Source: an uncultured bacterium (GTDB taxonomy: Bacteria; Verrucomicrobiota; Kiritimatiellia; RFP12; UBA1067). From it: a stretch of 64,000 nucleotides of DNA. This document shows, piece by piece, positions 2,586-60,531 of this stretch. The first letter of the stretch is position 1, and the number at the start of each line of letters is the position of its first letter. The DNA is taken from the NCBI GenBank assembly GCA_902764415.1, contig CACWVU010000001.1, forward strand, positions 1,133-65,132, in the 5' to 3' direction. The notes beneath the pieces were generated by a model. That model was not told where the DNA came from and ran no database searches. It saw nothing but the letters and a program-made list of their open reading frames with translations. The translations under genes and the position numbers were made by a program.

Positions 2586-2590
2586 GCGCC

Positions 2591-43107: not shown

Positions 43108-43173
43108 ACGCAGGGGGGGGGCTGGCCCCGAATTGCCTGGATTTTCAATACTATAGCGCACGGCGATAAGGGC

Positions 43174-43257
43174 TGATGGTGCTAAAAAGTGCAAAACTCA
43201 TTCGCTTGATGGTGCTAAAAAGTGTAGCCCGCTATTGCATGATGGTGCAGAAAAGTG
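43174..43257 (+). repeat. Three copies of TGATGGTGC(T/A)(A/G)AAAAGTG at exact 33-bp spacing upstream of ATPase cassette 1
   Basis: Copies start at 43174, 43207 and 43240. The third overlaps the -35/-10 spacer. Confidence 0.9.
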
Positions 43258-43263
43258 TATACT
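43235..43263 (+). promoter_or_regulatory. Promoter with apparently leaderless start
   Basis: TTGCAT (43235-43240), 17 nt spacer, TATACT (43258-43263), then acacgcc and ATG 43271. No room for an SD. Confidence 0.55.
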
Positions 43264-43270
43264 ACACGCC

Positions 43271-44623
43271 ATGAAAAGGGATTCTTACATCAAAAAACTT
43301 GAGGAATGGAAGCTTTCGCCGCGGAGAAAGCCACTTATCCTAGAGGGTGCGCGTCAAGTTGGGAAAACTTGGCTAATGATGGAGTTTGCCAAGACGCATT
43401 ACAAGAACTTCGTATATGCCCGATTTGATAAGGACCAGACCTTGCGTAGGATATTCTCATCAGATTTTGACATAGGGCGTATCGTGCGTGAACTTGAGAT
43501 TCTGTTTCATGCAAGAATCTGTCCAGATGATACCGTTTTGCTATTTGATGAAATCCAGGCCTGCCGAAACGCGCTGACCTCGTTGAAATATTTTTGCGAG
43601 GATCGTCCAGACCTTCATGTCATAGCCGCAGGATCTCTTCTTGGTTTGACATATCGTGACGACAATCAGAAGGATGAAGATGTCGGAGAGACTACCGGAT
43701 TCCCCGTCGGCAAAGTCAACACCATGCCGGTATATCCTCTGTCATTCAACGAGTACTTGGTGGCGTCGGGCGAGGAAGAAATTGCCGCGGCGATTCACAA
43801 TGAAGAGTGGAGCATTTTGAATTCACTTCATGGACGCGTGATCGACAAATTGCGCTATTATTATGTAATTGGCGGGATGCCTGAAGCGGTTGCGTCCTAT
43901 GTTGAATCGCAAAACTTTTTGGATGTGCGGGAGATTCATCGTGAAATTCTGGAAGGGTATCGTCGTGACATTTCCAAACATGCTCCGAAGTCCGATGTGA
44001 GGAAGATTGAATTGTGCTGGCAATCCATTCCGGCGCAGCTTGCGAAGGAGAACAAGAGATTTTCCTATGCCAAACTCAAGAAGGGTTCGAGAGCGGCAGA
44101 ATTCCGAGATCCAATCGCATGGCTCGAGGATGCTGGGTTGATAGGCATCAACCGTCGGGTAGTTGCGCCGCAGATACCGCTTGATGCCTATTCCAACGGC
44201 GGATTCAAGGTTTACGCTCTTGATGTCGGGTTGCTGTCTACGATGTCCGGGTTGGCGCCAGAAGTCATTTTGCAGGGGTCGCGCGTGTTTCGCGAATTCA
44301 AGGGCGCACTTGCCGAGCAGTATGTCTTTCAGCAGATGCTTGCCGTCGCTGATTTGCGGCCTTGCTACTGGAGTACGGACGATTCGAGGACGGAAATTGA
44401 TTTTGTTTTCCAGAAAGGCATGGCCATTTGTCCGCTTGAAGTAAAATCAGGCGGCAATGTAAGATCGCAAAGCTTGAAGTCGTATATTCGCAGATATCGC
44501 CCCGACGTGGCTTACCGCGCATCCATACTGCCGTATGAAAAACAGGAGGTGACGCTTGATGATGGCCGCAAATGTCTTTTGATCAATTTGCCGCTCTATG
44601 CTGTCACTTCCTGCGCAGAGTAG
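43271..44623 (+). CDS. AAA+ ATPase, AAA_14 + DUF4143-type (cassette 1)
   Basis: Walker A EGARQVGKTW, Walker B VLLFDEIQ, 450 aa. Architecture typical of the ATP-binding protein / DUF4143 family. Confidence 0.75.
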   Translation: MKRDSYIKKLEEWKLSPRRKPLILEGARQVGKTWLMMEFAKTHYKNFVYARFDKDQTLRRIFSSDFDIGRIVRELEILFHARICPDDTVLLFDEIQACRNALTSLKYFCEDRPDLHVIAAGSLLGLTYRDDNQKDEDVGETTGFPVGKVNTMPVYPLSFNEYLVASGEEEIAAAIHNEEWSILNSLHGRVIDKLRYYYVIGGMPEAVASYVESQNFLDVREIHREILEGYRRDISKHAPKSDVRKIELCWQSIPAQLAKENKRFSYAKLKKGSRAAEFRDPIAWLEDAGLIGINRRVVAPQIPLDAYSNGGFKVYALDVGLLSTMSGLAPEVILQGSRVFREFKGALAEQYVFQQMLAVADLRPCYWSTDDSRTEIDFVFQKGMAICPLEVKSGGNVRSQSLKSYIRRYRPDVAYRASILPYEKQEVTLDDGRKCLLINLPLYAVTSCAE

Positions 44624-44630
44624 TGCTGTT

Positions 44631-44643
44631 GGGGACTGTCCCC
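44631..44643. repeat. GGGGAC-N-GTCCCC palindrome
   Basis: ggggactgtcccc, 8 nt after the stop of ATPase 1. Same core at 46733-46745 (ggggacggtcccc) and 30425-30437. Confidence 0.8.
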
Positions 44644-45055
44644 ATTGGCTGCCATAGTTTCATTCGCGAGGTAATAAACTCCGATCCGTGGGGCTCTCGC
44701 GGCCTTCGGCTGTCTCGCTTCGCTCGGCTGTCCCGCTCCGCAGAATGGACTATGCTTCGCATTTGACATTCGTCTTACACGGTCATACTGACCTTGTTTT
44801 ATATCTGCGGCTTCGTCGCAGGGGGTCTGGGGGATGTGCCCCCAGATATAAAAACTGGCAACAATGGAATTGTAAGCATGGTTGTCCTGGGCGAAGCTGC
44901 GGAGCGGGAATGCGCCCGCGCCGAAGGCGCCGGGTCGGCCGAGGGCGAAGCCCGAGCCGCGTAGCGGCCGCAAGGGCCCGCGCGGGAGCCACAACCATCG
45001 GAGTTTAAAACAACAGCAGCAAGGAGCCTGAGTTCGCGCACGAGGCGGCGAAATT

Positions 45056-45064
45056 TGGTATACT
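45056..45064 (+). promoter_or_regulatory. Extended -10 promoter (TGGTATACT)
   Basis: tggtatact at 45056-45064, upstream of the short NTase-like ORF. Confidence 0.45.
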
Positions 45065-45098
45065 ATACATCACAAAAGACAATAGGGAGTGAGTTGTC

Positions 45099-45251
45099 AT
45101 GCCATCCGCGAACGAACGATTGCTGAATCCAGACTACCGGGACATGGTCGAGTGCCTTTTGAAGGAAGGCGTAGATTTCATGCTCGTTGGTGGGTATGCC
45201 GTTGAGTTTTACGGTTGGACATTGCCGACGCGCTGGCGTTGGAGAATCTGA
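45099..45251 (+). pseudogene. Truncated nucleotidyltransferase-like fragment (50 codons)
   Basis: Hand translation MPSANERLLNPDYRDMVECLLKEGVDFMLVGGYAVEFYG..., then an early stop. Resembles the N-terminus of small NTase-fold proteins. Below the ORF-track size cut-off. Confidence 0.3.
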
Positions 45252-45264
45252 AGGCGAGGTGAGG

Positions 45265-45438
45265 ATGGATAGGACTGTAGTAAAGATGACGACGCTTAAG
45301 GATGCGGACGAGGCGATCTGCCCGTCGCTGAGCATTGACGAGCGCATAAGGGTTCTTGAAGAGTTGAACCGCATCGGAAGGCTTGCGGTTGGCTATCCTA
45401 ATTCGCGCCTTGACCGAAGCGTCGCGCATTTCGTTTAA
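45265..45438 (+). CDS. Small hypothetical protein (57 aa)
   Basis: Internal ATG of ORF 45187..45438, preceded by AGGTGAGG. The DADEA...SIDERIRVLEELNR pattern is seen in small accessory proteins. Confidence 0.3.
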   Translation: MDRTVVKMTTLKDADEAICPSLSIDERIRVLEELNRIGRLAVGYPNSRLDRSVAHFV

Positions 45439-45447
45439 GTTCTCGTT

Positions 45448-46566
45448 ATGGACTCAAGTAAACTCACAGTTGTTGGCGCGGGGCTGTTCGGCGCGGTGGT
45501 GGCGCATGAGGCGGCGGAGCGCGGCGTGAAGGTGACGGTGATTGACCGGCGCCGGCACATCGGCGGCAACTGCTACACTAGGAACGAGGACGGCATCAAT
45601 GTCCACGTCTACGGCGCGCACATCTTCAGGACGAGCCGTCGCGACATCTGGGACTACGTCCGCTCCTTCGCCGACTTCAACCACTACGTCAACTCGCCGA
45701 TTGCCATGTACCACGGCAAGGTGTACAACCTGCCGTTCAACATGAACACCTTCCGGCAGATGTGGGGCATCAGCACGCCGGCGGCGGCGAAGGCGAAGAT
45801 CGAGGAGCAGCGCCGCGAGATCAAGGGCGAGCCGCGCAACTTAGAGGAGCAGGCGATTTCGCTGGTCGGGCGCGACGTCTACGAGATCCTGATCAAGGAG
45901 TACACCGAGAAGCAGTGGGGGCGTCCGTGCAGCGAGCTGCCGGCGTCGATCATCCGTCGCCTGCCGGTGAGGTTCGTCTACGACAACAACTACTTCAACG
46001 ATCCGTACCAGGGGATTCCGATCGGCGGCTATACCCATATCTTCGAGAAGCTGCTCGCCGGCTGCGAAGTGCTGCTCGGAGTGGACTGGCGCGACTACCG
46101 CGCGCAGACCGGCGAGGTTGGGCGCGTCGTCTACACCGGGCCGATCGACGAGTACTACGGCTACTCCTTCGGTCCGCTCGAGTACCGCTCGCTCCGCTTC
46201 GAGCACGAGCGGCACGACGAGACGGACAACCTCCAGGGCAACGCGGTGGTGAACTACACCGACGCGTCCGTGCCGTACACCCGCACGATCGAGCACAAGC
46301 ACTTCGAGTTCCAGTGCGCGCAGGGCTACACCGGCGTGCGGACGCCGTTCACGATCGTCTCGAAGGAGTACTCGTCGGAGTGGAAGCCCGGCGTCGAGCC
46401 GTATTATCCGGTGAACGACGAGCGGAACCAGGCGAAGTACGCGCAGTACGCGGAGCTCGCCGCGTCAGAGAAGGGCATCGCCTTCGGCGGCCGCCTCGGC
46501 TCCTACCGCTACTACGACATGCAGGATGCGATAGCAGCTGCGCTCAAGTTCGTGGAGGAGATATAA
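45448..46566 (+). CDS. glf: UDP-galactopyranose mutase
   Basis: VVGAGLFGAV FAD motif, GGNCYT, HIFRTS, YPVNDERN, GRLGSYRYYDMQDAI. Confidence 0.92.
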   Translation: MDSSKLTVVGAGLFGAVVAHEAAERGVKVTVIDRRRHIGGNCYTRNEDGINVHVYGAHIFRTSRRDIWDYVRSFADFNHYVNSPIAMYHGKVYNLPFNMNTFRQMWGISTPAAAKAKIEEQRREIKGEPRNLEEQAISLVGRDVYEILIKEYTEKQWGRPCSELPASIIRRLPVRFVYDNNYFNDPYQGIPIGGYTHIFEKLLAGCEVLLGVDWRDYRAQTGEVGRVVYTGPIDEYYGYSFGPLEYRSLRFEHERHDETDNLQGNAVVNYTDASVPYTRTIEHKHFEFQCAQGYTGVRTPFTIVSKEYSSEWKPGVEPYYPVNDERNQAKYAQYAELAASEKGIAFGGRLGSYRYYDMQDAIAAALKFVEEI

Positions 46567-46584
46567 ATCTCGCTGGGGATACGG

Positions 46585-46647
46585 CCAACGCATCAAAAAT
46601 TCCTTCTCCCCGCTGACGCGAGGTAGAACGAATTTTTGATGCGTTGG
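46585..46647 (+). terminator. Perfect 18-bp stem hairpin after glf (27-nt loop, no U-tract)
   Basis: ccaacgcatcaaaaattc (46585-46602) pairs with gaatttttgatgcgttgg (46630-46647). Confidence 0.4.
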
Positions 46648-46775
46648 AAGTATTCCAGCAGCCAGCAGCCAGTAGCCAGCGACCAGTGGGGAGAGGGCTC
46701 CCGTCCGCTTCCCACTGGACGCTAAACGCATAGGGGACGGTCCCCGAATTGCTGAGCTGATGGTGTGTATACTAC

Positions 46776-46840
46776 GCGCCAAGTTCCACAACGAAAACGC
46801 GCCAAGTTCCACAACGAAAACGCGCCAAGTTCCACAACGG
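46776..46840 (+). repeat. Three tandem copies of GCGCCAAGTTCCACAACGAAAAC (23-bp period) upstream of ATPase cassette 2
   Basis: Copies start at 46776, 46799 and 46822 (the last is truncated). Preceded by a degenerate promoter module tgtgtatactacgcgcc at 46764-46780. Confidence 0.9.
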
Positions 46841-46842
46841 CA

Positions 46843-46872
46843 TTGACAGTCTTACGGTGGATATGCTACAAT
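46843..46872 (+). promoter_or_regulatory. Promoter with apparently leaderless start
   Basis: TTGACA (46843-46848), 18 nt spacer, TGcTACAAT (-10 at 46867-46872), then acacgcc and ATG 46880. Confidence 0.6.
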
Positions 46873-46879
46873 ACACGCC

Positions 46880-48163
46880 ATGAAAACCTATAAAAATAGA
46901 ATTTATGACGCAATTCTCCGCGATGCTTTGGAGGCCAAAGGAGCGGTTCTTATTGAAGGGGCGAAATGGTGTGGAAAAACAACTACGGCGGAGCAGATAG
47001 CCCAAAGCGTCATTTATGTGAATGACCCCAAGCAGCTCAAGCAGAACCTTGTGACGGCACAGACGAATCCGCAACGCCTGCTTGCGGGGGCAAATCCGCG
47101 CTTGATTGATGAATGGCAGATTGTGCCGGAAATCTGGGATGCTATTCGTTTTGATGTAGACCATTCTGATGGAGACGGTAAGTACATTCTTACTGGAAGC
47201 GCAGTGCCGATTGATGACGAGGCAAAGAGGAAGATCCGGCATTCAGGGACTGGCCGGTTTGCATGGATAAGGATGCGTCCAATGTCGCTGTTTGAGAGCC
47301 TCGAATCATCGGGAAGTGTTTCGTTTGCCGACTTGTTCGCCGGGAAAGGGAACCTTGGAGACGCCAAACAGCATACACTTGAGGAAATGGCATATCTTAC
47401 CTGCCGCGGTGGCTGGCCCAGGGCAACCGACAAGAGCGGCAAGGCTGCGCTTCGTCAGGCGTTTGACTATGTTGATGCAATTGTCAACACCGACATCTCG
47501 CGAGTTGACTCGGTGCAGCGCGATCCTGACTTGTCGATCCGGATAATGAAGTCGCTCGCCAGATTGCAGGGGACGCAGGCGTCTGTTTCGGCAATTAAGG
47601 CCGATCTGGCCCCAAACGCTCCGAATGCCGTTCACGAAAACACGGTTTATTCTTATGTTGGGGCGCTTAAAAAGATGTTTGTTGTCGAGGACATGCCGGC
47701 CTGGTGTCCGAATCTGCGCTGCAAAACCCCAGTCCGCACAACCGACACCAGGTATTTCACCGATCCGTCCATCGCGACGGCGGCGCTAGGTCTCGGTCCG
47801 GACGGATTGATGGATGACCTAAAGACATTTGGATTTTTGTTTGAGACGCTGGTAGCGAGGGACCTGCGAACATACGCGGCGGCGAATGACGGCAAGGTTA
47901 GCCACTATCGCGACAAGAGCGGCCTTGAATGTGACGCGGTGATGCATCTGCGAGATGGTAGGTATGGACTTATCGAGGTGAAGATCGGCGGAGAGGCACT
48001 TATTGCCGACGGGCTAAAGAAGCTGAATCGTCTCGCGAGCGAGATTGATACCAAAACGATGAAGGAGCCCGCGTTCCGGATGATAGTCGTTGCCGAAGGT
48101 GAATATGCGTATGAGGAATCCGACGGCACGTTAATCTGCCCCATTGGCTGCCTAAAACCTTGA
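46880..48163 (+). CDS. AAA+ ATPase, AAA_14 + DUF4143-type (cassette 2)
   Basis: Walker A EGAKWCGKTT, Walker B RLIDEWQ, 427 aa. Confidence 0.75.
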   Translation: MKTYKNRIYDAILRDALEAKGAVLIEGAKWCGKTTTAEQIAQSVIYVNDPKQLKQNLVTAQTNPQRLLAGANPRLIDEWQIVPEIWDAIRFDVDHSDGDGKYILTGSAVPIDDEAKRKIRHSGTGRFAWIRMRPMSLFESLESSGSVSFADLFAGKGNLGDAKQHTLEEMAYLTCRGGWPRATDKSGKAALRQAFDYVDAIVNTDISRVDSVQRDPDLSIRIMKSLARLQGTQASVSAIKADLAPNAPNAVHENTVYSYVGALKKMFVVEDMPAWCPNLRCKTPVRTTDTRYFTDPSIATAALGLGPDGLMDDLKTFGFLFETLVARDLRTYAAANDGKVSHYRDKSGLECDAVMHLRDGRYGLIEVKIGGEALIADGLKKLNRLASEIDTKTMKEPAFRMIVVAEGEYAYEESDGTLICPIGCLKP

Positions 48164-48202
48164 AAACGCACTGCATAGTCATCAAGTCACTGACCATGAA
48201 TA

Positions 48203-48211
48203 TGGTATAAT
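48203..48211 (+). promoter_or_regulatory. Extended -10 promoter TGGTATAATACACGC upstream of the deleted glf copy and wzx
   Basis: tggtataat at 48203-48211 followed by acacgc; ATG 48227. Confidence 0.6.
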
Positions 48212-48226
48212 ACACGCAACCAACTT

Positions 48227-48427
48227 ATGGACTCAAGTAAACTCACAGTCGTTGGCGCGGGGCTGTTCGGCGCGGTGGTGGCGCACGAGGCGGCGGAGCG
48301 CGGCATGAAGGTGACGGTGATCGACCGGCGCCGGCACGTCGGCGGGCGCCTCGGCTCCTACCGCTACTACGACATGCAGGATGCGATTTCCGCCGCGTTT
48401 AAGTGTGCAGGACGCATGCTGGATTAG
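48227..48427 (+). pseudogene. glf: Internally deleted glf copy (66 codons: first 39 plus last ~27 of glf)
   Basis: The first ~117 nt align to 45448-45566 with ~5 substitutions and then jump to the equivalent of 46491. Junction at TCGGCGG microhomology (45560-45566 / 46484-46490 / 48339-48345). Confidence 0.85.
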
Positions 48428-48442
48428 GATGTCTTCCTCGCT

Positions 48443-50032
48443 ATGTCGCCTAACCGCAGAATATTCCTGAATGTAGTCGCCACCTATGGCCGATCGCTGT
48501 ATGCGCTGGCCATAGGGCTGTTCTGCGGGCGCTGGACGCTAATGCTCCTTGGTCAGACGGATTACGGCTTGATGGGTCTTGTCGGTGGATTGACCGGATT
48601 CATTACATTCTTCAATGGAATCTTTGCCGGCTCCGTCGGCCGTTTTTATGCATTCTACATCGGCAAGGAGAAGGCGGCGGAAAACTCCGCGGATGGAATA
48701 GAGGAGTGCCGCAGATGGTTCTCGCTTGCGGTCTTGATCCATTTGTCAATACCAGTTCTTCTTGTCATTGTCGGTTATCCAGTAGGAGTGTGGGCGGTTA
48801 GGAATTTTCTAAACATTCCGCCGGATCGTGTTGAGGCATGCGTGTGGGTTCTTCGCTTCGTCTGTGCATCTTGTTTCGTGGGGATGGCCAATGTTCCGTT
48901 TCAGGCGATGTATACGGCCAAGCAGGAGATTGCCGAGCTGACGATTTATAGTTTCATTACGACGACGGCAAACTTTGTGTTCCTTTATTTTGCAATACAG
49001 CACCCCGGCAACTGGCTGGTAAAGTTCATGCTGTGGACCTGCTGCCTGAGCATGGCTCCGCAAATGGTGATTGCATGGCGGGCGGTGGTCAAATATCCCG
49101 AATGCAGGTTGCGGCTAAGGTATTTCTGGGATAAGACCAGGTTTGTGCAGCTATTTGGCTACGCGGCGGCAAGGTTCTGGACTGCATTTACCGACATGTT
49201 TGCCACGCAGAGTCGGAATATCCTGGTAAACAAGTTTCTCGGTCCAAAGTGCAATGCTGCGATGCAGGTCGGCGGGGCGGTTTCCGGGCACGCGATGACG
49301 CTTTCAAATGCGCTTTCCCAGGCCTTTTGGCCCGCGCTGGTGAACAAGGCGGGGGAGGGCGATACGGAAAAGGTCTTCAAGATGGCGTTCTTTGCCTGCC
49401 GAATAGGAACTGCCGCAGTTATGCTGTTTGCCTTGCCGCTTATGCTTGAAGCGAAAGAGGTTCTGGTGCTGTGGCTCGTTGATCCTCCGTATTTCTCTTC
49501 CATGCTGTGCGTTGCAGCGCTCCTGGTGATGATTATGGAGCGGCTTACCGATGGGTACTGGATGGTAATCCTGGGGATGGGGAAAGGCGTGAAAACATAT
49601 TCGCTGGTTATTGGGTGGTCTGCCGTCCCCTGCATCCTGGTCCTTTATCTCTTCTTTTTCATGGGGATGGGATTTTGGAGCGTTTTCTGGGGGGCTATGG
49701 TTTGGGGTTTGTGCATATTGGTTCTTAGGCTTGTCTTGGGCAGCAGGCTGGTCGGACTTCGGTTCTGTCGGTGGCTTCGGAGCGTTTTCGTTCCAATGTG
49801 CACCATTGCAGCGGTTGCGCTGTGCGCAGGTCTTATGCCGCGCTCGCTGATGGACGGTTCATTTCTTCGTGTTGTCGTCACCACCTGCGCGGTCGAAGCT
49901 GTTTTCTTGCCGTTGGCGTGGAGATTTGCGCTGGAGCGCGACGAGCGAGGCTATGTCTTGGAACGGCTGAAGAGGATGTCGCCTTTCAAGGCAAGGTTTT
50001 CTGGACAATGTTCGAAAGGGGTGGATCGATGA
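48443..50032 (+). CDS. Wzx-like polysaccharide flippase (MOP superfamily membrane protein)
   Basis: 529 aa, ~12-14 hydrophobic segments. N-terminus and context are typical of polysaccharide biosynthesis / O-unit flippases. Confidence 0.6.
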   Translation: MSPNRRIFLNVVATYGRSLYALAIGLFCGRWTLMLLGQTDYGLMGLVGGLTGFITFFNGIFAGSVGRFYAFYIGKEKAAENSADGIEECRRWFSLAVLIHLSIPVLLVIVGYPVGVWAVRNFLNIPPDRVEACVWVLRFVCASCFVGMANVPFQAMYTAKQEIAELTIYSFITTTANFVFLYFAIQHPGNWLVKFMLWTCCLSMAPQMVIAWRAVVKYPECRLRLRYFWDKTRFVQLFGYAAARFWTAFTDMFATQSRNILVNKFLGPKCNAAMQVGGAVSGHAMTLSNALSQAFWPALVNKAGEGDTEKVFKMAFFACRIGTAAVMLFALPLMLEAKEVLVLWLVDPPYFSSMLCVAALLVMIMERLTDGYWMVILGMGKGVKTYSLVIGWSAVPCILVLYLFFFMGMGFWSVFWGAMVWGLCILVLRLVLGSRLVGLRFCRWLRSVFVPMCTIAAVALCAGLMPRSLMDGSFLRVVVTTCAVEAVFLPLAWRFALERDERGYVLERLKRMSPFKARFSGQCSKGVDR

Positions 50033-52730: not shown

Positions 52731-52731
52731 T

Positions 52732-53709
52732 ATGCCGAAGTTCTCGATAGTCATGCCAGTTTACAATCTGCGACCATGGCTGGTCGATGCGATTGAGTCT
52801 GTTAGGGCTCAGGACTTTGAGGACTGGGAATTAATCTGCGTCGACGACGGTTCGACGGACGGCTCTGGCGAAGTCCTCGACGGGTATTTAGTCAAGGAAT
52901 CTCGCATACATGTTGTCCATCAGGCCAATGGCGGTGAGGGGGCTGCCAGAAACGCGGCGCTTGAAATCGCAACCGGTGAATGGCTGGCGTATCTGGACGG
53001 TGACGATTTATGGCATCCGCAGTTCCTTTCCACTGCAGTGTCTGGTATGGCGCAGTTTCCCGATGCGCAGATAGTTCGTATGGCCCATGTTGATTTCCCC
53101 GACGGAGGCGAGCCGCATTGGCCCGATCAAAAGAGCGGATTTAGGTATATCGATTACTCGAAAAGATTGACAAGCGACGTATATTCAGGGGGATTCCTCG
53201 ACGCGGTATATTTGAGAGCGGGCGTAAAGAACATTAGATTTAAGGATTATTCCGTTGGGGCCGATCGCGTCTGCTACAACGAGTGCTTGGCCGCGACTGT
53301 CGGCATGGCGGCGTCGAAGGTGGTCAGGTATGCGTATCGTCGTCGCCAAGGTTCGGCTTATAATGCTCCTGAAACCTCGCGAAAGAGCATCTCGCAGTTG
53401 TCGTGGCAGATGGATCAGTGGCGATTTTGGGAGAATGGCGGGCGATCTGTTGACAGGCCATTGATTAGACGTGCGGCGCAAATGTTGACGGAATTGCATG
53501 CATATTCTCTTTGGTCGCTTCCGTCCGAAGAGCTGGCGCCTTCATGGAAGGCGTGGATTTTGGCGCTGCGTGAATTGAAGGACTCGCGGATGTTACCTGG
53601 CTGGCAGAGGTTTGTTGCCGGAATAATCGTGGCGCTGCCTGTCCGCATAATAGCGTGGACGCTTTGTGCATTCCCGTATTGGTTGAAACTGAAGGGCGTT
53701 CATCGGTAG
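52732..53709 (+). CDS. Glycosyltransferase family 2
   Basis: FSIVMPVYN...QDFEDWELICVDDGSTDGS, LDGDDL. Confidence 0.85.
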   Translation: MPKFSIVMPVYNLRPWLVDAIESVRAQDFEDWELICVDDGSTDGSGEVLDGYLVKESRIHVVHQANGGEGAARNAALEIATGEWLAYLDGDDLWHPQFLSTAVSGMAQFPDAQIVRMAHVDFPDGGEPHWPDQKSGFRYIDYSKRLTSDVYSGGFLDAVYLRAGVKNIRFKDYSVGADRVCYNECLAATVGMAASKVVRYAYRRRQGSAYNAPETSRKSISQLSWQMDQWRFWENGGRSVDRPLIRRAAQMLTELHAYSLWSLPSEELAPSWKAWILALRELKDSRMLPGWQRFVAGIIVALPVRIIAWTLCAFPYWLKLKGVHR

Positions 53710-53722
53710 ATTGGATTTGATA

Positions 53723-54808
53723 ATGAAGTCCCTTTCCGTTATCGTTCCTGCCTACAATATGGAGAATTATCTCGCGAAGTGTTGCGAGAGCATGGTGGTG
53801 GCGTCGGAGCTGATGGAGAGGCTCGAGGTGCTGGTGGTCAACGACGGTTCCACCGACAAGACGAGCGAGATTGGCCATTCGTTCGAGCGACGGTATCCGG
53901 GAACTTTCCGCGTCATTGACAAGGAGAACGGACACTACGGCAGCTGCGTCAATCGCGGGCTTGCCGAGGCGAAGGGCGAGTTCGTGAAACTGCTCGATGC
54001 CGACGACACATTCGACACGGCTGGATTCGCGAGATTGCTCAGGTTTCTGGTAGAGGGATCGGCGAATGGCGCGCTTGACAAAATCGACCTTGTGCTGACC
54101 GACTATTGCATAGTTGACAAGCGCGGCAAAACGCTGCGCGTCGTTTCCTTTGGCGGCGATGCAGACGCGGCGTTTGGAGTCGACGAGTCAATCGAGGGGC
54201 GATGTTGTTCGGCGATGTGTGTTTTCCGCACTCGGATGCTACGTGACATCGGCTATCGCCAGACCGAGGGAATCCTCTACACCGATCTTGAGTGGGGAAC
54301 ATTTCCGATGCTTGGAGTTCGGAAGATCAAGTATCTGCCCGTTGTCGTCTACCGCTATTTCCAGGGACGCGAAGGGCAGAGCATATCTGCCGCGGTGGCT
54401 GGCAGTCGTTCAGGCGATCTTGAGCGGGTGCTGTCGCGCATGGTGGACGAGCTTGGCGGCTACCGCGGAGACAAGGGTAAGGAGTCGTTTTTCGCATCCC
54501 GGCTCAACAGCGTGGCGACCAACCTCTACCATAACTACCTTATTTGTGCGCCGCTCGGCGAGGTCGATGCGGGATTTGCCCGTGCCGATGCCATCGTCAG
54601 CCGGCTCTCAGGCCTGCACGCCTCAACAGAGAATGTGCGTCTTTCCAACCGTCTTCGGTTTCGCTATGTTGGCGCATGGCGTCGCCGCCGCCATTTACCG
54701 CGCCTTGTCGTTCTGTTTGCCCGTGCCTACTCTTGCCTCGCGAGCGGAATCATGCGTTGGATTGTTAGGATGATACCAGTTGCTGCGATAACGGCGGATT
54801 TGCTATAA
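53723..54808 (+). CDS. Glycosyltransferase family 2
   Basis: LSVIVPAYNMENYL...VNDGSTDKT, LDADD. Confidence 0.85.
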   Translation: MKSLSVIVPAYNMENYLAKCCESMVVASELMERLEVLVVNDGSTDKTSEIGHSFERRYPGTFRVIDKENGHYGSCVNRGLAEAKGEFVKLLDADDTFDTAGFARLLRFLVEGSANGALDKIDLVLTDYCIVDKRGKTLRVVSFGGDADAAFGVDESIEGRCCSAMCVFRTRMLRDIGYRQTEGILYTDLEWGTFPMLGVRKIKYLPVVVYRYFQGREGQSISAAVAGSRSGDLERVLSRMVDELGGYRGDKGKESFFASRLNSVATNLYHNYLICAPLGEVDAGFARADAIVSRLSGLHASTENVRLSNRLRFRYVGAWRRRRHLPRLVVLFARAYSCLASGIMRWIVRMIPVAAITADLL

Positions 54809-54819
54809 TCCACACCACA

Positions 54820-55839
54820 GTGAAGATTTCCGTCATAGTTCCCATGTACAATGTGGCGTCGCTTGTCGCGGACGCGGTGTCGTCCATTCGGACAGCTGCC
54901 GATCGAGCAAAGTCGGTTGCAGACATTGATGTCATCCTGGTCGACGATGGCAGTACGGACGCGACGCTTGCTGCGGCGGAGTCGGCCGTCGCCGGCGATG
55001 GCCGCTTTAGAGTCGTGAGGAAGGCGAATGGCGGCGAGGGCAGCGCGAGGAATGCCGGCATTGAGGTTGCGGATGGGGACTGGCTCATGTTCTTTGATTC
55101 GGACGATGTGGTGTCTCCGACCATGTTCTCCGATGTCGTCCGCGCGCTTGAGATGCATCCCGAAGTTGACCTTGTCAGGTGCGGCACCTGCGTGTTCAAT
55201 GATGGCGGAACGCCAGAGTGGTGCGGGAGCGGGTCGGTGCGACTTCTCGACATCTCGCACGAGTTGCCCGATGAGCTATCCATGTTCGGCGTTACCGAGA
55301 TGGCTTACAGGAGAGAGAAATTTGCCAATCTTCGCTTTAGCGCGTACTGCATTGGCGCCGATCTGGTTTACACGAGCGCGTGTTTCGCCAGAGCCAGCGG
55401 CATGGCAGTGATCGACAGAAGAAACTATGGTTACAGGATCAGGTCTGACAGCGCGGCCCATTCGTCGCCGACAGCAAAGAAGCTCATGGACAGCATCGGC
55501 AGCACCGAGGAGATGTTCGTGAATTTTGCATTTGGCGGCAAGCGTATCGGCAGGTCGCTTTCTCGCGGTCGGGGCAATGCCTGGATAGAGAGGCTGCCGT
55601 CTGAAATAGCCGGCTTGCCGAGTTCCTGCGATGTCCCACAGGTCTGGCGCAAATGGGCGCAGTCGATGCGAACTGCCGCGCGGATGCCGTTTTTCACAAA
55701 TTGGCAGAAGATGGTTGTGCGCACCATTGTCCTGGCGGGAGATTCAGTTGCCATTGTGAAGGCGTTTGCGTTTGCGCTTTGCGTAGTGCTATATAGGCTG
55801 AAGTTGATGATTCTGCGTCGCAGGAGGCGGCGGAGATGA
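54820..55839 (+). CDS. Glycosyltransferase family 2
   Basis: ISVIVPMYN...VDDGSTDAT, FDSDD. GTG start. Confidence 0.8.
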   Translation: MKISVIVPMYNVASLVADAVSSIRTAADRAKSVADIDVILVDDGSTDATLAAAESAVAGDGRFRVVRKANGGEGSARNAGIEVADGDWLMFFDSDDVVSPTMFSDVVRALEMHPEVDLVRCGTCVFNDGGTPEWCGSGSVRLLDISHELPDELSMFGVTEMAYRREKFANLRFSAYCIGADLVYTSACFARASGMAVIDRRNYGYRIRSDSAAHSSPTAKKLMDSIGSTEEMFVNFAFGGKRIGRSLSRGRGNAWIERLPSEIAGLPSSCDVPQVWRKWAQSMRTAARMPFFTNWQKMVVRTIVLAGDSVAIVKAFAFALCVVLYRLKLMILRRRRRRR

Positions 55840-56690
55840 CTTACGTCAAGGTAGACCCGTGTTCGACGCGGCTTGGCAACTGGATGTTTCAGTATGCTGC
55901 GGCAAAATGCGCGGCACCCGGCGAACCGGTCGCTTTCGTCATTGCCGGCGGGCAGAGCATCGAAGCCGTGCGGAAGTACGCGGCACTTTGGCCGGAGGCG
56001 GAGTATGTGCGCGCCGCGCCGGAGGGCGCATCGGTGCGCATTGGACTGTTCCAGGACTGGAAGAGGCTTGAGCCTGACATTGTCCGCCGTCTGTTCAAGT
56101 GTCCGGCGGAGGTGGAGACGCGGATCGAGGCGAAGTATGGACGGGCGGTAGCTGACTGGGACGACGTCGTCTCCGTCCATGTCCGCAGAGGCGACTATCT
56201 CTCGCTGCCCCATCGCCATCCGTTCGTCGGAGTGAAGTATCTTGAAAGGGCGGTCGCCATGTTTGCCGCGCGAGGCGGCGGGCGCAGGATGCGCTTCTTG
56301 GTCTGTTCAGACGACATAGCGTGGTGCCGAAGGTTCTTTTCGCGCAAGGAGTTCAAAGGGCATGACTTCATATTCTCGGAAGGCAATGACGTGATGACGG
56401 ACCTTTTCCTGATGGCGAAGTGCTGCGGCGGCCACATCTGCTCGAACTCGTCGTTTTCGTTCTGGGGCGCATATCTCGGCGCACTTGATTCGCTGCCTGG
56501 TGCGCAGCTCACGGTTTTCCCGTCGATGTGGTTCGGGATGGCGATCAAGGACCAGGATGGTTCGGGCATGTATTTCCCCGGCAGCCAGGTGATTGAGAAC
56601 AGCTATTCGCTTTCGCAGCGCCTTTCGGCACTCTTGCACATGGCCAAAACCGCCGCGGGAAATGTCTTGAGAAGGATTGGCAGAAGATGA
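55836..56690 (+). CDS. Alpha-1,2-fucosyltransferase (GT11)
   Basis: ATGA overlap. GNWMFQYA, VHVRRGDYL (HxRRxD) and SNSSFSFWGAYL motifs. Confidence 0.85.
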   Translation: MTYVKVDPCSTRLGNWMFQYAAAKCAAPGEPVAFVIAGGQSIEAVRKYAALWPEAEYVRAAPEGASVRIGLFQDWKRLEPDIVRRLFKCPAEVETRIEAKYGRAVADWDDVVSVHVRRGDYLSLPHRHPFVGVKYLERAVAMFAARGGGRRMRFLVCSDDIAWCRRFFSRKEFKGHDFIFSEGNDVMTDLFLMAKCCGGHICSNSSFSFWGAYLGALDSLPGAQLTVFPSMWFGMAIKDQDGSGMYFPGSQVIENSYSLSQRLSALLHMAKTAAGNVLRRIGRR

Positions 56691-57661
56691 AGCGCAATGC
56701 GTCGATAGAACTGTTTCGTTTGTTGCTGATGTTCGGGATATGCCTATTGCATTCAGCAATCAATCCCGGATATTCAAGAGCGTGGTTCATAAACATCACC
56801 TGTTTCTGCGTTACGGCGTTTGCGTTCATTTCTGGATATTATGGTGCTTCTTTTCGTCCTTCTAAGATAGTGAGACTTGTGGGTACAGGTGTCATCTGCG
56901 CATTGATTTGCGGAAGGGGCAACATTTCGCGTGCATGGGGAATATATGGAGGGTACTGGTTCCTGCACGCCTATGTGCTGATGATGTGTCTTGCACCGCT
57001 TGTTGATGGAGCAATCTCGCGAAAGGGTGCGATTGCCGTTGCGATGCCTTTGCTGGTGGCCGTTTTCGTGTGGGGCGACCTGCCGTCACTTCCGTTCTTC
57101 AGCAGGCTGAACATTCCTGTAACGCCAGGCCTTGAAGCTTATTCCGGATTGACGTTGCTTGGGGCGTATGTCGCCGCTCGCATATATCGGCTTTATGGTT
57201 TGGAAAGGATGCGTGGCCGTTGGGTTGTAGTCATTATTCCAATATTGGTTTGCTTTGCGGCCTTGGGGATGAATGAATACAACAACATCGTTGCATTGTT
57301 CTTGTCGGCAATGTTCTTTACGGCATTTGACAAGATTAGACTTCCGTCCTGGTTGAGCCGAGTTGTCTTAATCCTGTCTCCTTCCGTGTTTGCCATCTAT
57401 CTGCTGCATCAGCCAGAAATTGATTTCGAGGTTGGGATTGTTAGGTCGTGGATAGACCGCGGTTGCAATATTTACATCGCGTATTTCGCCGCTGCCTTAA
57501 CGGTGTTCTTTCTTGCGATGGCTGTAGATCTGCCGCGTCGTGTGGCTGCGTGGCTTATGCGTCCAATCCTAGTCAGGGCGTATGCGTTGATTGATGGCTG
57601 CTATGACAACGTTCTGGCATGGATTGATGGGGCGCTTGGAAAGATTGGGAGCGAATCATGA
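56687..57661 (+). CDS. Acyltransferase family 3 (membrane O-acyltransferase)
   Basis: ATGA overlap. NASIELFRLLLMFGICLLH and ~9 hydrophobic segments. Confidence 0.75.
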   Translation: MKRNASIELFRLLLMFGICLLHSAINPGYSRAWFINITCFCVTAFAFISGYYGASFRPSKIVRLVGTGVICALICGRGNISRAWGIYGGYWFLHAYVLMMCLAPLVDGAISRKGAIAVAMPLLVAVFVWGDLPSLPFFSRLNIPVTPGLEAYSGLTLLGAYVAARIYRLYGLERMRGRWVVVIIPILVCFAALGMNEYNNIVALFLSAMFFTAFDKIRLPSWLSRVVLILSPSVFAIYLLHQPEIDFEVGIVRSWIDRGCNIYIAYFAAALTVFFLAMAVDLPRRVAAWLMRPILVRAYALIDGCYDNVLAWIDGALGKIGSES

Positions 57662-58620
57662 AGAAGAAAATCAAGCTTGGCTTTGCGGACAAGTGGGGCG
57701 GGTTCGTTCCCGAAGAGGACTTTTACTACAAGCTTCTCGCCAGGCACTACGATATCGAGCTGTCCGATACCCCCGACTACCTGATCTGCAGTCAGAACGG
57801 TCACTCGCACATCAAGTACGACTGCGTGAAGATAGTGGACATTGGCGAGAACATAGTCCCGGACTTCAACGAGTTTGACTATGCCGTCGGGTTCGACCAC
57901 CTCGAGTTCGGCGACCGCTATCTGCGCGTGCCGCTCTACGTGTTCTTCGCCGAGTATCCGAAGCTGGCCGAAAGGGCGACGCCTCCGCCTGACGATGTGC
58001 TGCTCAACCGCAAGTTCTGCAGTTTTGTCGTCACCAACGGCGGCTACGGAGACCCGATGCGCACCAAGTTCTTCCATGCGCTTTCCAAGTACAAGCGGGT
58101 AGATAGTGGCGGCAGGTATTTGAACAATATCGGCGGCAACGTCAAGGACAAGATGGAGTTCTGCAGCCAGTACAAGTTCAACATTGCGTTCGAGAACAGT
58201 TCTTCGCCGGGATATACGACCGAGAAGGTGATGCAGCCGCTCTCATGCTTTTCGGTTCCGATTTACTGGGGCAATCCGTTGATAGCGAAGGATTTCACCC
58301 CTGCATCGATGGTCTGTGTAAAGGACGAGGCGGACATAGACAGGGCGGTCGAGGAGATAATCCGCCTTGACACTGACGACGCGGCGTATCTTGAGAAGGT
58401 CAAGGCGCCGTGTCTTGTCCAGCCGCACGACTTCTACGAGAAGGAGCTGGAGAAGTTTCTTTGCCACATCATCGACCAGCCGCTTGAAGAGGCCCGTCGT
58501 CTCAACCGGTACGGTTTTCAGACGATCCACCGGTTCAGGATGCGCAGGCTGTATGCAATCCAAGATGCGCTTGCCGCGCCGGTAAAGCTGATGCGCCGCG
58601 TGAAGTCGGTGCTGCGCTGA
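57658..58620 (+). CDS. Alpha-1,3/4-fucosyltransferase (GT10)
   Basis: ATGA overlap. FCSFVVTN, YKFNIAFENSSSPGYTTEKVMQPL (GT10 motif). Confidence 0.85.
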   Translation: MKKKIKLGFADKWGGFVPEEDFYYKLLARHYDIELSDTPDYLICSQNGHSHIKYDCVKIVDIGENIVPDFNEFDYAVGFDHLEFGDRYLRVPLYVFFAEYPKLAERATPPPDDVLLNRKFCSFVVTNGGYGDPMRTKFFHALSKYKRVDSGGRYLNNIGGNVKDKMEFCSQYKFNIAFENSSSPGYTTEKVMQPLSCFSVPIYWGNPLIAKDFTPASMVCVKDEADIDRAVEEIIRLDTDDAAYLEKVKAPCLVQPHDFYEKELEKFLCHIIDQPLEEARRLNRYGFQTIHRFRMRRLYAIQDALAAPVKLMRRVKSVLR

Positions 58621-58708
58621 TGCTTCGCATTTCGCCAATCCCAATTCAGATGCGGCACAGACTTTTCTCACACAGAGACACAGAGACACAGAGGTTTTTT
58701 CTGTGCTG

Positions 58709-58763
58709 CAAAATGACGGCGGTTTCGTCATATTGTGTCTCAAAATGACGGCGGCTTCGTCAT
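58709..58763 (+). repeat. Two copies of CAAAATGACGGCGG(T/C)TTCGTCAT at 32-bp spacing upstream of ATPase cassette 3
   Basis: Copies at 58709-58731 and 58741-58763. Each contains the internal palindrome TGACG-N7-CGTCA. Confidence 0.9.
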
Positions 58764-58770
58764 TTTGCCA

Positions 58771-58800
58771 TTGACAACAGCGACGAATTTTGGGTATAAT
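58771..58800 (+). promoter_or_regulatory. Promoter with apparently leaderless start
   Basis: TTGACA (58771-58776), 18 nt spacer, TGgGTATAAT (-10 at 58795-58800), then tcgcgtc and ATG 58808. Confidence 0.6.
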
Positions 58801-58807
58801 TCGCGTC

Positions 58808-59938
58808 ATGAAGAGTATAAATAGGTTAATTGCGCCATTGCGCGAGAGCTTCTTCCTGTTTGGGCCTAGGGGAACGGGAAAATCTACTTGGCTTGAAATG
58901 GCTTTCCCAAAGGCGCTTAGGGTAGATCTTCTTGACTCTGAGACTTTTCGCAACTACAAGGCAAGACCTGAACGCCTTTCCGACCTAATAGCTGCAAACC
59001 CGTCGGCGCGCACTGTGGTTGTTGATGAAGTCCAGAAGGTGCCGGAAATCCTTGATGTAGTCCATTTGATAATGGAGAACAACAAGTCCATTCAGTTCGT
59101 CCTTACTGGGTCGAGTGCGAGGAAACTGCGTAGGGCCGGCGTGAATCTCCTGGGCGGAAGGGCGCTGAAGCTTTCGATGCACCCGTTTGTGGCAAAGGAA
59201 CTGCAGGGAGAGTTCAGCCTTGAAGGCGCGCTTGTGCACGGCATGCTGCCAATCGTGTACGGCGCTGCGTCGCCGTTGCGGAAGCTTGAGGCCTACATTG
59301 ACCTGTATATCCGCGAGGAAATCCAGCAAGAAGGGCTGGTGAGGGATCTCGGGTCGTTCACTCGTTTCCTGGAGGCGATCTCGTTTTCGCATGGATCTCA
59401 ACTTTCAATTTCGTCGGTGGCGCGGGAGTGCGGAGTCAAGCGCACGACTGTGAACGGATACGTTGACATTCTCCAGGATCTCCTTGTCGCCGATGTCGTG
59501 CCGGTCTTTTCGAAGCGTGCCAAGCGCGAACTGGTGTCCCACGGGAAGTTCTATTTCTTCGACACCGGGGTTTGGCGGACTTTGCGCCCCAAGGGCCCGT
59601 TGGACAACCCGTCGGAGATCGACGGCGCAGCGCTTGAGGGACTCGTCTATCAGCACCTTCGCGCGAAGCTGGACCTCGACGGCGTTCGCGACGGTCTATT
59701 TTTCTGGCGCACACGCAGCGGAGTGGAGGTCGATTTCGTCGTCTACACCCAGCAGACCTTCATGGCCGTGGAGGTGAAGAACGCCACGAGGGTGCAGCCG
59801 TCGGATGTGGCCGGTCTTCGTGCCTTCGTGGAAGACTACCCTGGCGCGACGCCGGTGCTGGTGTATCGCGGGACGGAGCGCATCATGTTCAATGGCGTGC
59901 TGCTTGTGCCGGCCGGAGAGTTTCTGCTGTCGCTTTGA
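58808..59938 (+). CDS. AAA+ ATPase, DUF4143-type (cassette 3)
   Basis: Walker A FGPRGTGKST, Walker B VVVDEVQ, 376 aa. Confidence 0.75.
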   Translation: MKSINRLIAPLRESFFLFGPRGTGKSTWLEMAFPKALRVDLLDSETFRNYKARPERLSDLIAANPSARTVVVDEVQKVPEILDVVHLIMENNKSIQFVLTGSSARKLRRAGVNLLGGRALKLSMHPFVAKELQGEFSLEGALVHGMLPIVYGAASPLRKLEAYIDLYIREEIQQEGLVRDLGSFTRFLEAISFSHGSQLSISSVARECGVKRTTVNGYVDILQDLLVADVVPVFSKRAKRELVSHGKFYFFDTGVWRTLRPKGPLDNPSEIDGAALEGLVYQHLRAKLDLDGVRDGLFFWRTRSGVEVDFVVYTQQTFMAVEVKNATRVQPSDVAGLRAFVEDYPGATPVLVYRGTERIMFNGVLLVPAGEFLLSL

Positions 59939-59996
59939 TCTGGAAATGCCAATGCCGCGGAAAGGTGCCTGCACTGAAAGAACTGGAGGAAGGGAC

Positions 59997-60380: not shown

Positions 60381-60440
60381 GGCGCCTGTCGACGCAGAAC
60401 GAAAAAGAAAATTTTTTCATTTTCCCCCTTGCGCGCGTGC

Positions 60441-60464: not shown

Positions 60465-60531
60465 AGATGTTGCGGATGTTGCGCTCGAATTGGGCGTGCC
60501 GACAACACCGACAAGGAAAAAGGATCAAACT

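Follow-up and report, generated by a model that had tools for sequence, protein, structure and literature searches.

Three genes in the window (the whole stretch of 64,000 nucleotides that we analysed) encode ATPases, each preceded by a repeat array and a promoter of its own (Table 1). The initial annotation had assigned them to the AAA_14 plus DUF4143 architecture and described them as divergent. Pfam profile searches bear this out: PF13173 and PF13635 matched all three proteins (E 1e-13 to 1e-34), with AAA_14 N-terminal and DUF4143 after it. All six domain matches exceeded the Pfam gathering score, and the mutual identity of the proteins is only 24-25%. The PADLOC profile HMMs for PDC-S01 also matched the three proteins end to end (E 1e-52 to 1e-160), with scores of 531.7 bits for ATPase 1 (PDLC04786), 216 bits for ATPase 2 (04790), and 174 and 156 bits for ATPase 3 (04790 and 04789, respectively). 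All three thus have the AAA_14 plus DUF4143 architecture that defines PDC-S01 (COG1373), and their PD-(D/E)XK motif is intact.

Table 1. Coordinates in the window of the three ATPase genes and their associated elements.
Feature	Position	Strand	Description
Cassette 1 indel unit	43103..44653	+	1551 bp: G-run/hairpin and ccccgaattgc leader, array, promoter, gene, downstream hairpin, attggctgcc
Array 1	43174..43272	+	3 units, 33-bp period, at 43174/43207/43240; core TGATGGTGC(T/A)(A/G)AAAAGTG
Promoter 1	43235..43270	+	TTGCAT (43235)-N17-TATACT (43258), acacgcc, ATG 43271
ATPase 1	43271..44623	+	450 aa; AAA_14 + DUF4143; best PADLOC model 04786
Hairpin 3' of ATPase 1	44631..44653	+	GGGGACTGTCCCC then attggctgcc
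Decayed cassette-1-type 5' region	46733..46780	+	hairpin, ccccgaattgc, gctgatggtg, tgTATACTacgcgcc (direct reading)
Array 2	46774..46842	+	three tandem 23-nt units GCCAAGTTCCACAACGAAAACGC at 46774/46797/46820; end abuts -35
Promoter 2	46843..46879	+	TTGACA (46843)-N18-TACAAT (46867), acacgcc, ATG 46880
ATPase 2	46880..48163	+	427 aa; AAA+ 1-210, winged helix 216-293, PD-(D/E)XK D352/E366/K368; model 04790
Array 3	58709..58767	+	two 27-nt palindromes CAAAATGACG-N7-CGTCAT(A/T)TTG; centres 32 bp apart
Promoter 3	58771..58807	+	TTGACA (58771)-N18-TATAAT (58795), tcgcgtc, ATG 58808
ATPase 3	58808..59938	+	376 aa; AAA_14 + DUF4143; PDC-S01 models 04790/04789

The Walker A (GxxGK(T/S)), Walker B (hhhhDE), and nuclease (E-x-D...E-V-K) motifs are invariant in the three proteins and in 62 relatives. 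An AF2 model (pLDDT 91) comprises AAA+, winged-helix, and nuclease domains. By structure comparison, the closest solved folds are archaeal proteins with an ATPase and a winged helix (2qen, 2fna), MalT (8bob, third among the structural matches), and DNA-bound Orc1/Cdc6. The resemblance to the latter lies at the level of the fold (2qby, E 4.5e-6, with low TM-scores of 0.24-0.29) and a sequence search against PDB chains gave no match, so we rejected membership in Orc1/Cdc6.

Few candidate defence genes are as common in prokaryotes as those of PDC-S01: the family is reported to rank fourth among defence candidates, its role in defence being experimentally unvalidated (PMC12988326), and to be the single locus found most often in rumen genomes (PMC13356809). 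An anti-phage function is thus far a putative, candidate one. The literature that we searched covers the protein family and its abundance, with no description of a linked cis element, promoter layout, or cassette boundaries.

All three cassettes show the layout first described for them: a private repeat array, a -35/-10 pair, 7 nt, and the ATG. The third unit of array 1 is the source of both the promoter spacer and the extended -10. The units of array 3, with a 32-nt period (58702 and 58734), are each internally palindromic (CAAAATGACG-N7-CGTCATTTTG), and the array ends 3 nt short of the -35. The arrays abut or overlap the core promoter, an operator-like placement. Arrays 2 and 3, which end just 5' of the -35, would suit activation equally well. 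An orthologue of ATPase 2 (L001) has TTGACA-N18-TAGAAT, atctacc, and ATG at the corresponding place.

The 7-nt string preceding the ATG is present in all three cassettes, but it does not mark them. It is a promoter signature of the genome at large, because a -10 followed by ACACGC also occurs at promoters of the window that lead to a Shine-Dalgarno sequence (3868, 40518, and 48206). A -10 at 5-9 nt from the first start was found for just two others of the 49 crude ORFs of the window, truA (15032) and a heparinase gene (30510). The leaderless-type layout described in the initial annotation is present at the three genes, where the -10 lies 6-8 nt 5' of the ATG, as it does in about 12-14 relatives. 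It fails as a property of the family, since relatives in Bacteroidetes, Akkermansia, and Firmicutes have leaders; it is a lineage-specific adaptation, found in Kiritimatiellae-like, higher-GC relatives. Sparse RNA data point both ways: one contig begins at 46880, the ATG of ATPase 2, and another spans 43181-43331, covering the array and the ATG of cassette 1. From the promoter layout, the cassettes may be transcribed leaderless.

Orthologues keep the repeats 5' of the gene, and arrays accompany the gene across phyla. In subfamily 2, a direct repeat with a 23-bp period (unit consensus GCCAAAYnnnnGAAYRAAAwnnn) was found in 66 of 68 non-redundant relatives, against 1.4 of 68 in shuffles (~2%) and 8 of 172 random windows. 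Repeats with a 32-33-bp period are present in 20 of the 23 relatives of subfamily 1, which belong to Kiritimatiellae, Akkermansia, Bacteroidales, Erysipelotrichaceae, and Puniceicoccales. The motif of this subfamily, AAA[AG][ATG]GT[GA], keeps the 32-33-bp phasing 5' of homologues in five phyla and is 27-fold enriched upstream; its final copy lies over the -10 or within the 5'UTR. The paired palindromes of subfamily 3, ~32 bp apart, are kept in close relatives of 71-99% identity (L106, L108, L118, and L122). Distant members on alphaproteobacterial plasmids have 22-bp arrays, but two of the four lack a clear one. Arrays have 2-5 phased units, and up to 7-8. Cognate units concentrate 5' of the gene, with 165 within 200 nt upstream against 6 elsewhere in 483 kb. 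Each gene has a single array, invariably located at its promoter, with units upstream only and no inverted or direct copy downstream. DNA homology among relatives is sharply bounded by the first repeat and the stop codon.

The cassettes were said to lie at junctions of glycan modules, and we recovered LicD, GLF, and GT10 as neighbours, with a step in GC content at each cassette. They are not syntenic housekeeping genes: no family of flanking ORFs is common to more than three of 65 relatives' loci, and the inspected contexts all differ. Cassette 1 is a 1551-bp presence/absence polymorphism in contigs of rumen metagenomes. Two independent studies (X7 and X16) yielded contigs with its empty site, which joins 43102 to 44654 with CCTA between; the occupied form is present as well. 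A further contig (X13) enters the cassette out of another upstream context and becomes homologous at ~43104. The 43102/44654 joint carries no target-site duplication, and no linked transposase family was found among the flanking ORFs of the relatives' loci. We rejected a transposon or insertion sequence on these two grounds and because the units are upstream only. An integron gene cassette was rejected because each cassette has its own promoter and the annotated region of the window has no integrase.

Cassettes 1 and 2 do share ccccgaattgc and gctgatggtg, in the same order, and we found a third shared string, the 16-nt gtgtatactacRcgcc, which also keeps its order. Exact copies of GGGGACNGTCCCC lie at 44631 and 46733. 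The decayed cassette-1-type 5' region is joined to array 2 via a common acgcgcc, and ccccattggctgcc, from the element at 44631..44653, recurs in the last coding stretch of ATPase 2 (48140-48153). The GGGGAC palindromes flank cassettes 1 and 2 as reported, but they are not cassette-specific: one-mismatch copies at 30425, 32337, and 32392 are away from any ATPase. They are genome-wide REP-like elements. The initial annotation had proposed autoregulated, possibly mobile cassettes. Exchange, boundaries, polymorphism, and indirect signs of self-regulation speak for this, whereas we found no signature of a recombinase or of transposition.

The divergence of the repeat core follows that of the distal half of the protein. 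It covaries with the winged helix (partial Mantel rho 0.39, p <=0.001) and with the nuclease (rho 0.29, p <=0.001), both figures being inflated by shared ancestry, and not with the AAA domain, which is physically adjacent to the array (rho -0.07, p 0.85). Because the nuclease covaries with the core too, this does not pin down the reading domain. Self-regulation is supported indirectly, by this covariation and by the last repeat of subfamily 1 at the -10 or in the 5'UTR. No flanking family is widely shared, cognate units concentrate upstream of the gene, and one genome harbours three distinct arrays; hence no conserved candidate reader of the array is left but the protein itself. Since the same arrays accompany the gene across phyla, their most probable role is that of docking and self-control sites for the protein itself. 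On balance, we think it fairly probable that each gene is a self-contained, horizontally exchanged, self-regulated single-gene PDC-S01 cassette, in which self-binding and the sign of regulation are predictions.

Such a cassette would comprise the ORF, its near-consensus promoter, and a private array in which 2-5 putative binding sites are phased. The ATPase-nuclease would recognise its own array through the winged-helix/C-terminal half and might bind cooperatively at sites two or three helical turns apart. In cassettes 2 and 3 the bound protein would then cover the -35, and in cassette 1 the spacer and the -10; this would keep a potentially toxic nuclease low, independently of host regulators. 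The core promoter and translation start may be re-tailored to each host lineage; in the Kiritimatiellae lineage, placing the -10 6-8 nt 5' of the ATG would give a leaderless or near-leaderless mRNA. The cassettes sit between genes, at junctions within a rapidly changing glycan locus, beside REP-like hairpins and multi-copy repeats, where insertion and recombination may be tolerated.

The arrays could have other roles. An ORC/STAND-like ATPase-nuclease might oligomerise on them, on DNA of its own cell, as on an assembly track, a parking or licensing site that would keep the nuclease inactive until a trigger arrives, gene regulation being a by-product. The fold, nearest to Orc1/Cdc6-DNA complexes, MalT, and NLR-type oligomerising NTPases, would suit such a role, as would the strict helical phasing (23 or 32-33 bp, in 2-5 and up to 7-8 copies) and the covariation of the nuclease domain with the core. 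Yet a parking site needs no particular place, whereas the single array of each gene is always at the promoter, and simple autoregulation covers the same facts with fewer assumptions; we regard the assembly track as unlikely. Quite unlikely, in our view, is positive control, in which the protein or its ATP-bound oligomer would activate its own promoter from sites just 5' of the -35, in the manner of MalT at its phased MalT boxes. MalT is among the top structural matches and arrays 2 and 3 stop 0-3 nt upstream of the -35, but the -35/-10 are already near consensus (TTGACA / TATAAT), so that activation is not needed, and the last repeat of subfamily 1, over the -10 or in the transcribed leader, is typical of repression.

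The repeats might also be sites of mobility, i.e., recombination or transposition ends, homing sites, or iteron-type replication sites, with the ATPase-nuclease as the mobility enzyme. The sharp homology boundaries from first repeat to stop codon, the 1551-bp indel with its second upstream context, the unrelated genomic contexts across loci, the remaining 5'-end scars, and the nuclease domain all fit. This is nevertheless very unlikely: the repeats are one-sided, the cassette 1 joint is unduplicated and the indel begins 70 nt 5' of the array, there is neither an AT-rich unwinding element nor a plasmid context, and ordinary recombination between the REP-like hairpins and multi-copy repeats of the junctions can explain the turnover. 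A combined reading, in which the array is both the assembly track of an ORC-like oligomer and the cis site defining the moving unit of plug-and-play cassettes, is rather unlikely. If true, the cassette, running from the 5' leader or first repeat to shortly after the stop codon, would use recombination driven by its own nuclease to move between genomes and phyla, and cassettes would seed the junctions where surface-glycan modules are swapped. Finally, slippage can generate tandem repeats, and the arrays could be neutral duplications or sites of a host transcription factor with no relation to the ATPase. We give this very little credence, given the same motif and period alongside the gene in different phyla, the three unrelated arrays within one genome, a period kept in nearly all subfamily 2 loci (66/68, against ~2% in shuffles), and the covariation of the core with the distal half of the protein.

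The self-regulated cassette that we favour recalls known systems. The controller proteins C.PvuII and C.AhdI belong to mobile defence modules and have phased C-boxes directly 5' of the regulator start; their transcripts are reported leaderless, and their expression is host-independent and self-limited. The regulator there is a small XRE-type HTH dimer, and the R and M genes that it controls are separate. Cassette 3 has the same geometry (two palindromes, promoter, ATG), but here the presumed regulator and the effector are one winged-helix ATPase-nuclease of 376-450 aa, and only array 3 is palindromic, arrays 1 and 2 being direct repeats. The iterons of theta plasmids (pPS10, R6K, RK2, and F) are replicon-private, phased direct repeats of ~22 bp located immediately 5' of the autoregulated gene of the winged-helix Rep initiator that binds them, and archaeal ORB elements adjoin orc1/cdc6. 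Our arrays are likewise phased direct repeats immediately 5' of the gene of a winged-helix protein, and Orc1/Cdc6 shares the AAA+ and winged-helix fold. In contrast, our cassettes are chromosomal, number three in 17 kb, encode a nuclease domain, and have neither an AT-rich unwinding element nor a replicon context. We rejected an iteron/Rep replicon on the chromosomal location, the three units in 17 kb, and the lack of an AT-rich tract adjoining the arrays. The likeness to MalT and other STAND activators consists of an NTPase with a direct-repeat array next to the -35; the oligomerisation is that of MalT. MalT, of ~900 aa, includes a sensor domain, binds DNA through a LuxR-type domain, and activates weak promoters, whereas the proteins described here have no sensor domain and their promoters are near consensus.

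Both AAA_14 and DUF4143 scored above the curated Pfam cut-offs in all three ATPases of the window, and models of the PADLOC family PDC-S01 spanned the three proteins end to end, although with different sub-models. Pairwise identities are only 24-25%, which bears out the divergent copies of one architecture described in the initial annotation. The three proteins keep both Walker motifs (A and B) as well as a nuclease motif, E-x-D...E-V-K. An AlphaFold model of ATPase 2 (input alignment of 62 sequences; pLDDT 91.3, pTM 0.91) consists of an AAA+ domain (residues 1-210), a winged helix (216-293) and a PD-(D/E)XK domain in which D352, E366 and K368 are invariant. Its closest solved folds are the archaeal proteins 2qen and 2fna, which combine an ATPase and a winged helix. 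ATPase 1 had no match among PDB sequences, and no relative of ATPase 3 was found in viral contigs. DUF4143 is described as a PD-(D/E)XK family with no assigned function (PMC3424549). PDC-S01 is reported to rank fourth in abundance among prokaryotic defence candidates (PMC12988326) and to outnumber every other single locus in rumen genomes (PMC13356809); the literature searched, including these two studies, treats it only as an abundant defence candidate, with no mention of the arrays described here.

Repeat analysis confirmed that each ATPase gene is preceded by a private array, which runs into a -35/-10 pair, with a gap of 7 nt between the -10 and the ATG in the three cassettes (see table). 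In a crude list of 49 ORFs of the window, a -10 was placed 5-9 nt 5' of the first start in 3/3 ATPases and 2/46 other ORFs (about 5e-4 in our own hypergeometric count). The near-leaderless layout is therefore rare, yet the ATPases have no monopoly, because truA and a heparinase gene show it too. At truA (PseudoU_synth_1), TGGTATAAT is followed by acgcgac and then GTG; this housekeeping gene may be leaderless too in the host organism, provided that the GTG is the true start. The 7-nt string ahead of the ATG had been taken as part of the cassette signal. This did not hold: at three promoters with leaders, too, ACACGC comes right after a -10 (TATAAT/TAAAAT). The combination is a signature of the genome's promoter/discriminator region, and the trait specific to the ATPases is the ATG immediately after the string, rather than the string itself. 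A described RNA element is unlikely, since an Rfam scan of 42900-60500 (E ≤ 1) gave no match.

Cassettes and associated features in the window (positions in nt)
Feature	Position	Description
ATPase 1	43271-44623	+ strand
ATPase 2	46880-48163	+ strand
ATPase 3	58808-59938	+ strand
Array 1	from 43174	three units, 33-bp period
Array 2	from 46774	three tandem 23-nt units
Array 3	from 58702	two units, 32 bp apart; internal palindrome CAAAATGACG-N7-CGTCATTTTG
Promoter 1		TTGCAT-17-TATACT, array 1 runs into it
Promoter 2		TTGACA-18-TACAAT, array 2 runs into it
Promoter 3		TTGACA-18-TATAAT, array 3 runs into it
Cassette 2, limits of DNA similarity	46775-46787 to 48153-48163	first repeat to stop codon; five related loci
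Cassette 3, limits of DNA similarity	58707-58710 to 59899-59934	relatives
Non-ATPase ORFs with close -10	15032, 30510	truA, heparinase
TGGTATAAT at truA	15015-15034	
-10 plus ACACGC, leader present	3868, 40518, 48206	
GGGGACNGTCCCC palindrome	44631, 46733	exact
GGGGACNGTCCCC palindrome	30425, 32337, 32392	one mismatch
High-copy segments	44660-44990, 46580-46720	beside cassettes 1 and 2; loose ends at 44676, 44734-44748, 46580
7-nt tandem run	58663-58693	cacagag-acacagag-acacagag, just 5' of array 3
50-aa ORF	45099-45251	between cassette 1 and glf
57-aa ORF	45265-45438	between cassette 1 and glf
Extended -10 promoter	45056	

The arrays are conserved upstream of orthologues. Relatives of gene 1 (43-45% identity) in Akkermansia, Bacteroidales, Prevotella, Parabacteroides, Erysipelotrichaceae and Puniceicoccales genomes have two to five upstream repeats sharing the core AAA(A/G)(A/T/G)GT(G/A), e.g., GTGCAGAAAAGTGTA in Parabacteroides for GGTGCAGAAAAGTGTA in the window. 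The top autocorrelation fell at 32-33 bp or its double in 20 of 23 gene 1 loci, and the density of the core in the 200 nt upstream was 27 times that in the rest of the loci. For gene 2 we used 80 metagenome loci (55-82% identity) and one Kiritimatiellae MAG. Of the 68 non-redundant upstream regions, 66 had a repeat of 14 nt or longer, allowing up to two mismatches, always with a period of 23 bp (controls: 1.4/68 in shuffles, 8/172 in random windows from the same loci). In the unit consensus, GCCAAAYnnnnGAAYRAAAwnnn, C3, A4 and A5 are invariant, while positions 8-11 are constant inside one locus and differ from locus to locus. Relatives of gene 3 (71-99% identity) retain two AAAATGACG-N7-CGTCATTTT palindromes about 32 bp apart, and more remote ones have other palindromes upstream. 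The feature extends to Alphaproteobacteria, since plasmid members with 27-29% identity have three to four repeats with a 22-bp period and a (T/C)CCAA core. The Agrobacterium vitis and Novosphingobium plasmids (L123 1270-1494, L124 1400-1494) have a common (A/T)TTCCAATTATCAT-like unit; in two other plasmid members checked, neither had a clear array.

The leaderless layout, initially regarded as general to these cassettes, is not a family trait. Among the 68 subfamily-2 loci (relatives of gene 2), about 36 have a Bacteroidetes TAnnTTTG box with a leader of 25-30 nt, 11 have Shine-Dalgarno leaders, and about 12-14, of higher GC, have a sigma-70 -10 at 6-9 nt 5' of the start. The latter include the Kiritimatiellae MAG orthologue (TTGACA-18-TAGAAT-atctacc-ATG). 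The near-leaderless layout recurs in three Kiritimatiellae-type relatives of gene 3 (L106, L108, L118) and in L112, and in Akkermansia the relatives of gene 1 carry a leader of 23 nt. Since leaders vary by host, the putatively leaderless design is a lineage adaptation. Low-depth metatranscriptome contigs, too thin for start mapping, showed that gene 2 is transcribed, one of them starting at 46880; a similarly thin 151-nt RNA contig (43181-43331) crosses array 1 and the ATG of gene 1. Cassette 3 had zero coverage in these contigs.

No flanking ORF family was present in more than three of 65 loci searched for a conserved neighbour, so a conserved partner gene was rejected; the neighbourhoods vary (chorismate synthase, tRNA synthetase, polysaccharide genes), in agreement with the initial view that these are not stable syntenic genes. 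Cognate units numbered 165 within 200 nt upstream of the genes and six elsewhere in 483 kb, with none inverted or downstream across the loci searched. Hence, with no conserved flanks and units clustered upstream, the encoded protein is the only conserved trans candidate. We correlated pairwise distances of the repeat core (positions 6-14) with those of parts of the protein, each time correcting for the remainder of the sequence. The core correlated with the winged helix (rho 0.39, p ≤ 0.001) and the nuclease (rho 0.29, p ≤ 0.001), and not with the AAA domain (rho -0.07, p 0.85). The array adjoins the AAA-coding end, so that linkage alone would give the reverse pattern. These sequence comparisons suggest covariation with the winged helix and nuclease beyond linkage, short of conclusively because shared ancestry inflates such tests.

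We favour, with moderate confidence, a portable single-gene module: an ATPase/winged-helix/nuclease ORF behind a strong promoter and a phased operator private to it, through which its product would restrict its own expression. After the archaeal proteins, the folds closest to the ATPase 2 model are MalT, DNA-bound Orc1/Cdc6, ORC subunits and NLRs; that the array is an assembly track for an ORC-like oligomer is conceivable but unlikely. The last copy of the gene 1 core lies over the -10 in the window and inside the 5'UTR in two relatives (L011, L015), and arrays acting as positive control sites seem improbable. We regard as very improbable that they are cis sites for mobility: neither target duplication, nor terminal repeats, nor a recombinase was found for the cassettes, and only five of the 124 other loci have a second PDC-S01 gene in their flanks. 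This is roughly chance level for multi-copy families, and tandem clustering as a rule was rejected, as were transposon ends, since cognate units are never downstream or inverted. A Prevotella MAG (L009 1316-6601) has three co-oriented PDC-S01 genes in 6.6 kb, of which two resemble gene 1 and one resembles gene 2, and is a second case of the triple tandem arrangement of the window.

Under the self-limiting module that we favour, a DNA word that is conserved, specific to its gene, fixed in phasing and placed on the gene's own promoter would be the first concrete experimental handle on PDC-S01. The array leads one to expect that each protein has a cognate DNA ligand, points to the winged helix and C-terminal half as the specificity-determining region, and would account for the insertion of a nuclease gene into unrelated hosts. 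The increment of the window over this general feature is detail rather than discovery: a translation-start design refitted per host lineage, putatively leaderless here, a cassette that is a clean presence/absence polymorphism in natural populations, and cassettes and 5' scars that flag sites of glycan-module exchange.

The polymorphic cassette is cassette 1. Contigs from two independent rumen studies have the joint 43102-CCTA-44654 (with short sides of 30-35 nt, the right one within a segment present in many copies in metagenomes), from which exactly 1551 bp are absent, i.e., cassette 1 and its flanking hairpins, leaving LicD intact. They were found alongside contigs of the occupied form. In a third study, cassette 1 has another upstream context, and homology begins at about 43104. 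In the Kiritimatiellae MAG (L001), a gene-1 homologue that lacks its 5' end lies 150 bp ahead of a cassette-2 homologue, which has four repeats. In the window, a collapsed cassette-1-type 5' region (hairpin, ccccgaattgc, gctgatggtg, tgTATACTacgcgcc) is fused to array 2 via a common acgcgcc, and the string ccccattggctgcc 3' of gene 1 is identical to the 3' coding end of gene 2. One low-depth contig of run X7 joins, with a 25-nt side, the end of LicD (43097) to 48192, 29 nt past the ATPase 2 stop, omitting cassette 1, glf and cassette 2; it weakly hints at a possible haplotype in which the promoter of the short copy of glf comes directly after LicD.

The cassettes lie among LicD, GLF, GT29-like, GT2, GT11, acyltransferase and GT10 genes, and GC content shifts stepwise at each of them, as initially annotated. 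They probably occupy permissive junctions of a fast-recombining glycan locus. The GGGGAC palindromes said to flank cassettes 1 and 2 are indeed exact there, but are not cassette-specific: GGGGACNGTCCCC has five matches in the window (0.11 expected), the three imperfect ones far from any ATPase, and behaves like a REP-type intergenic element. The segments beside cassettes 1 and 2 had rumen contig depths of 100-400, against 7-15 for neighbour genes, and adjoin many different sequences, which is the behaviour of multi-copy MITE/REP-like elements at module junctions. Other copies of the junction segments 44624-45060, 46567-46775 and 58621-58707 were not found inside the window, and two of the three are high-copy in metagenomes.

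A conspecific contig (L122) has a gene 3 99% identical to that of the window (GT11 98.9%, ATPase 3 and S24 peptidase 98%). At 871-3480 it has 2.6 kb of other genes, a 122-aa ORF and an amino-oxidase-like 416-aa ORF, where the window has the acyltransferase and GT10 fucosyltransferase (56693-58621), and homology is back one base past the GT10 stop. This is a strain-level swap of a glycan module. At 3243-3330 the contig has a decayed extra cassette-3 5' region (CACAGAG repeats, one palindrome, the start of a -35) which gives way to unrelated sequence within the -35; it looks like the scar of a lost or replaced cassette. The 7-nt tandem run 5' of array 3 is kept both in L122 and in this scar copy. 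The two small ORFs between cassette 1 and glf, which follow the extended -10 promoter, had no Pfam match; by eye, the 50-aa one resembles the N-terminus of a nucleotidyltransferase-type toxin or antitoxin fragment.
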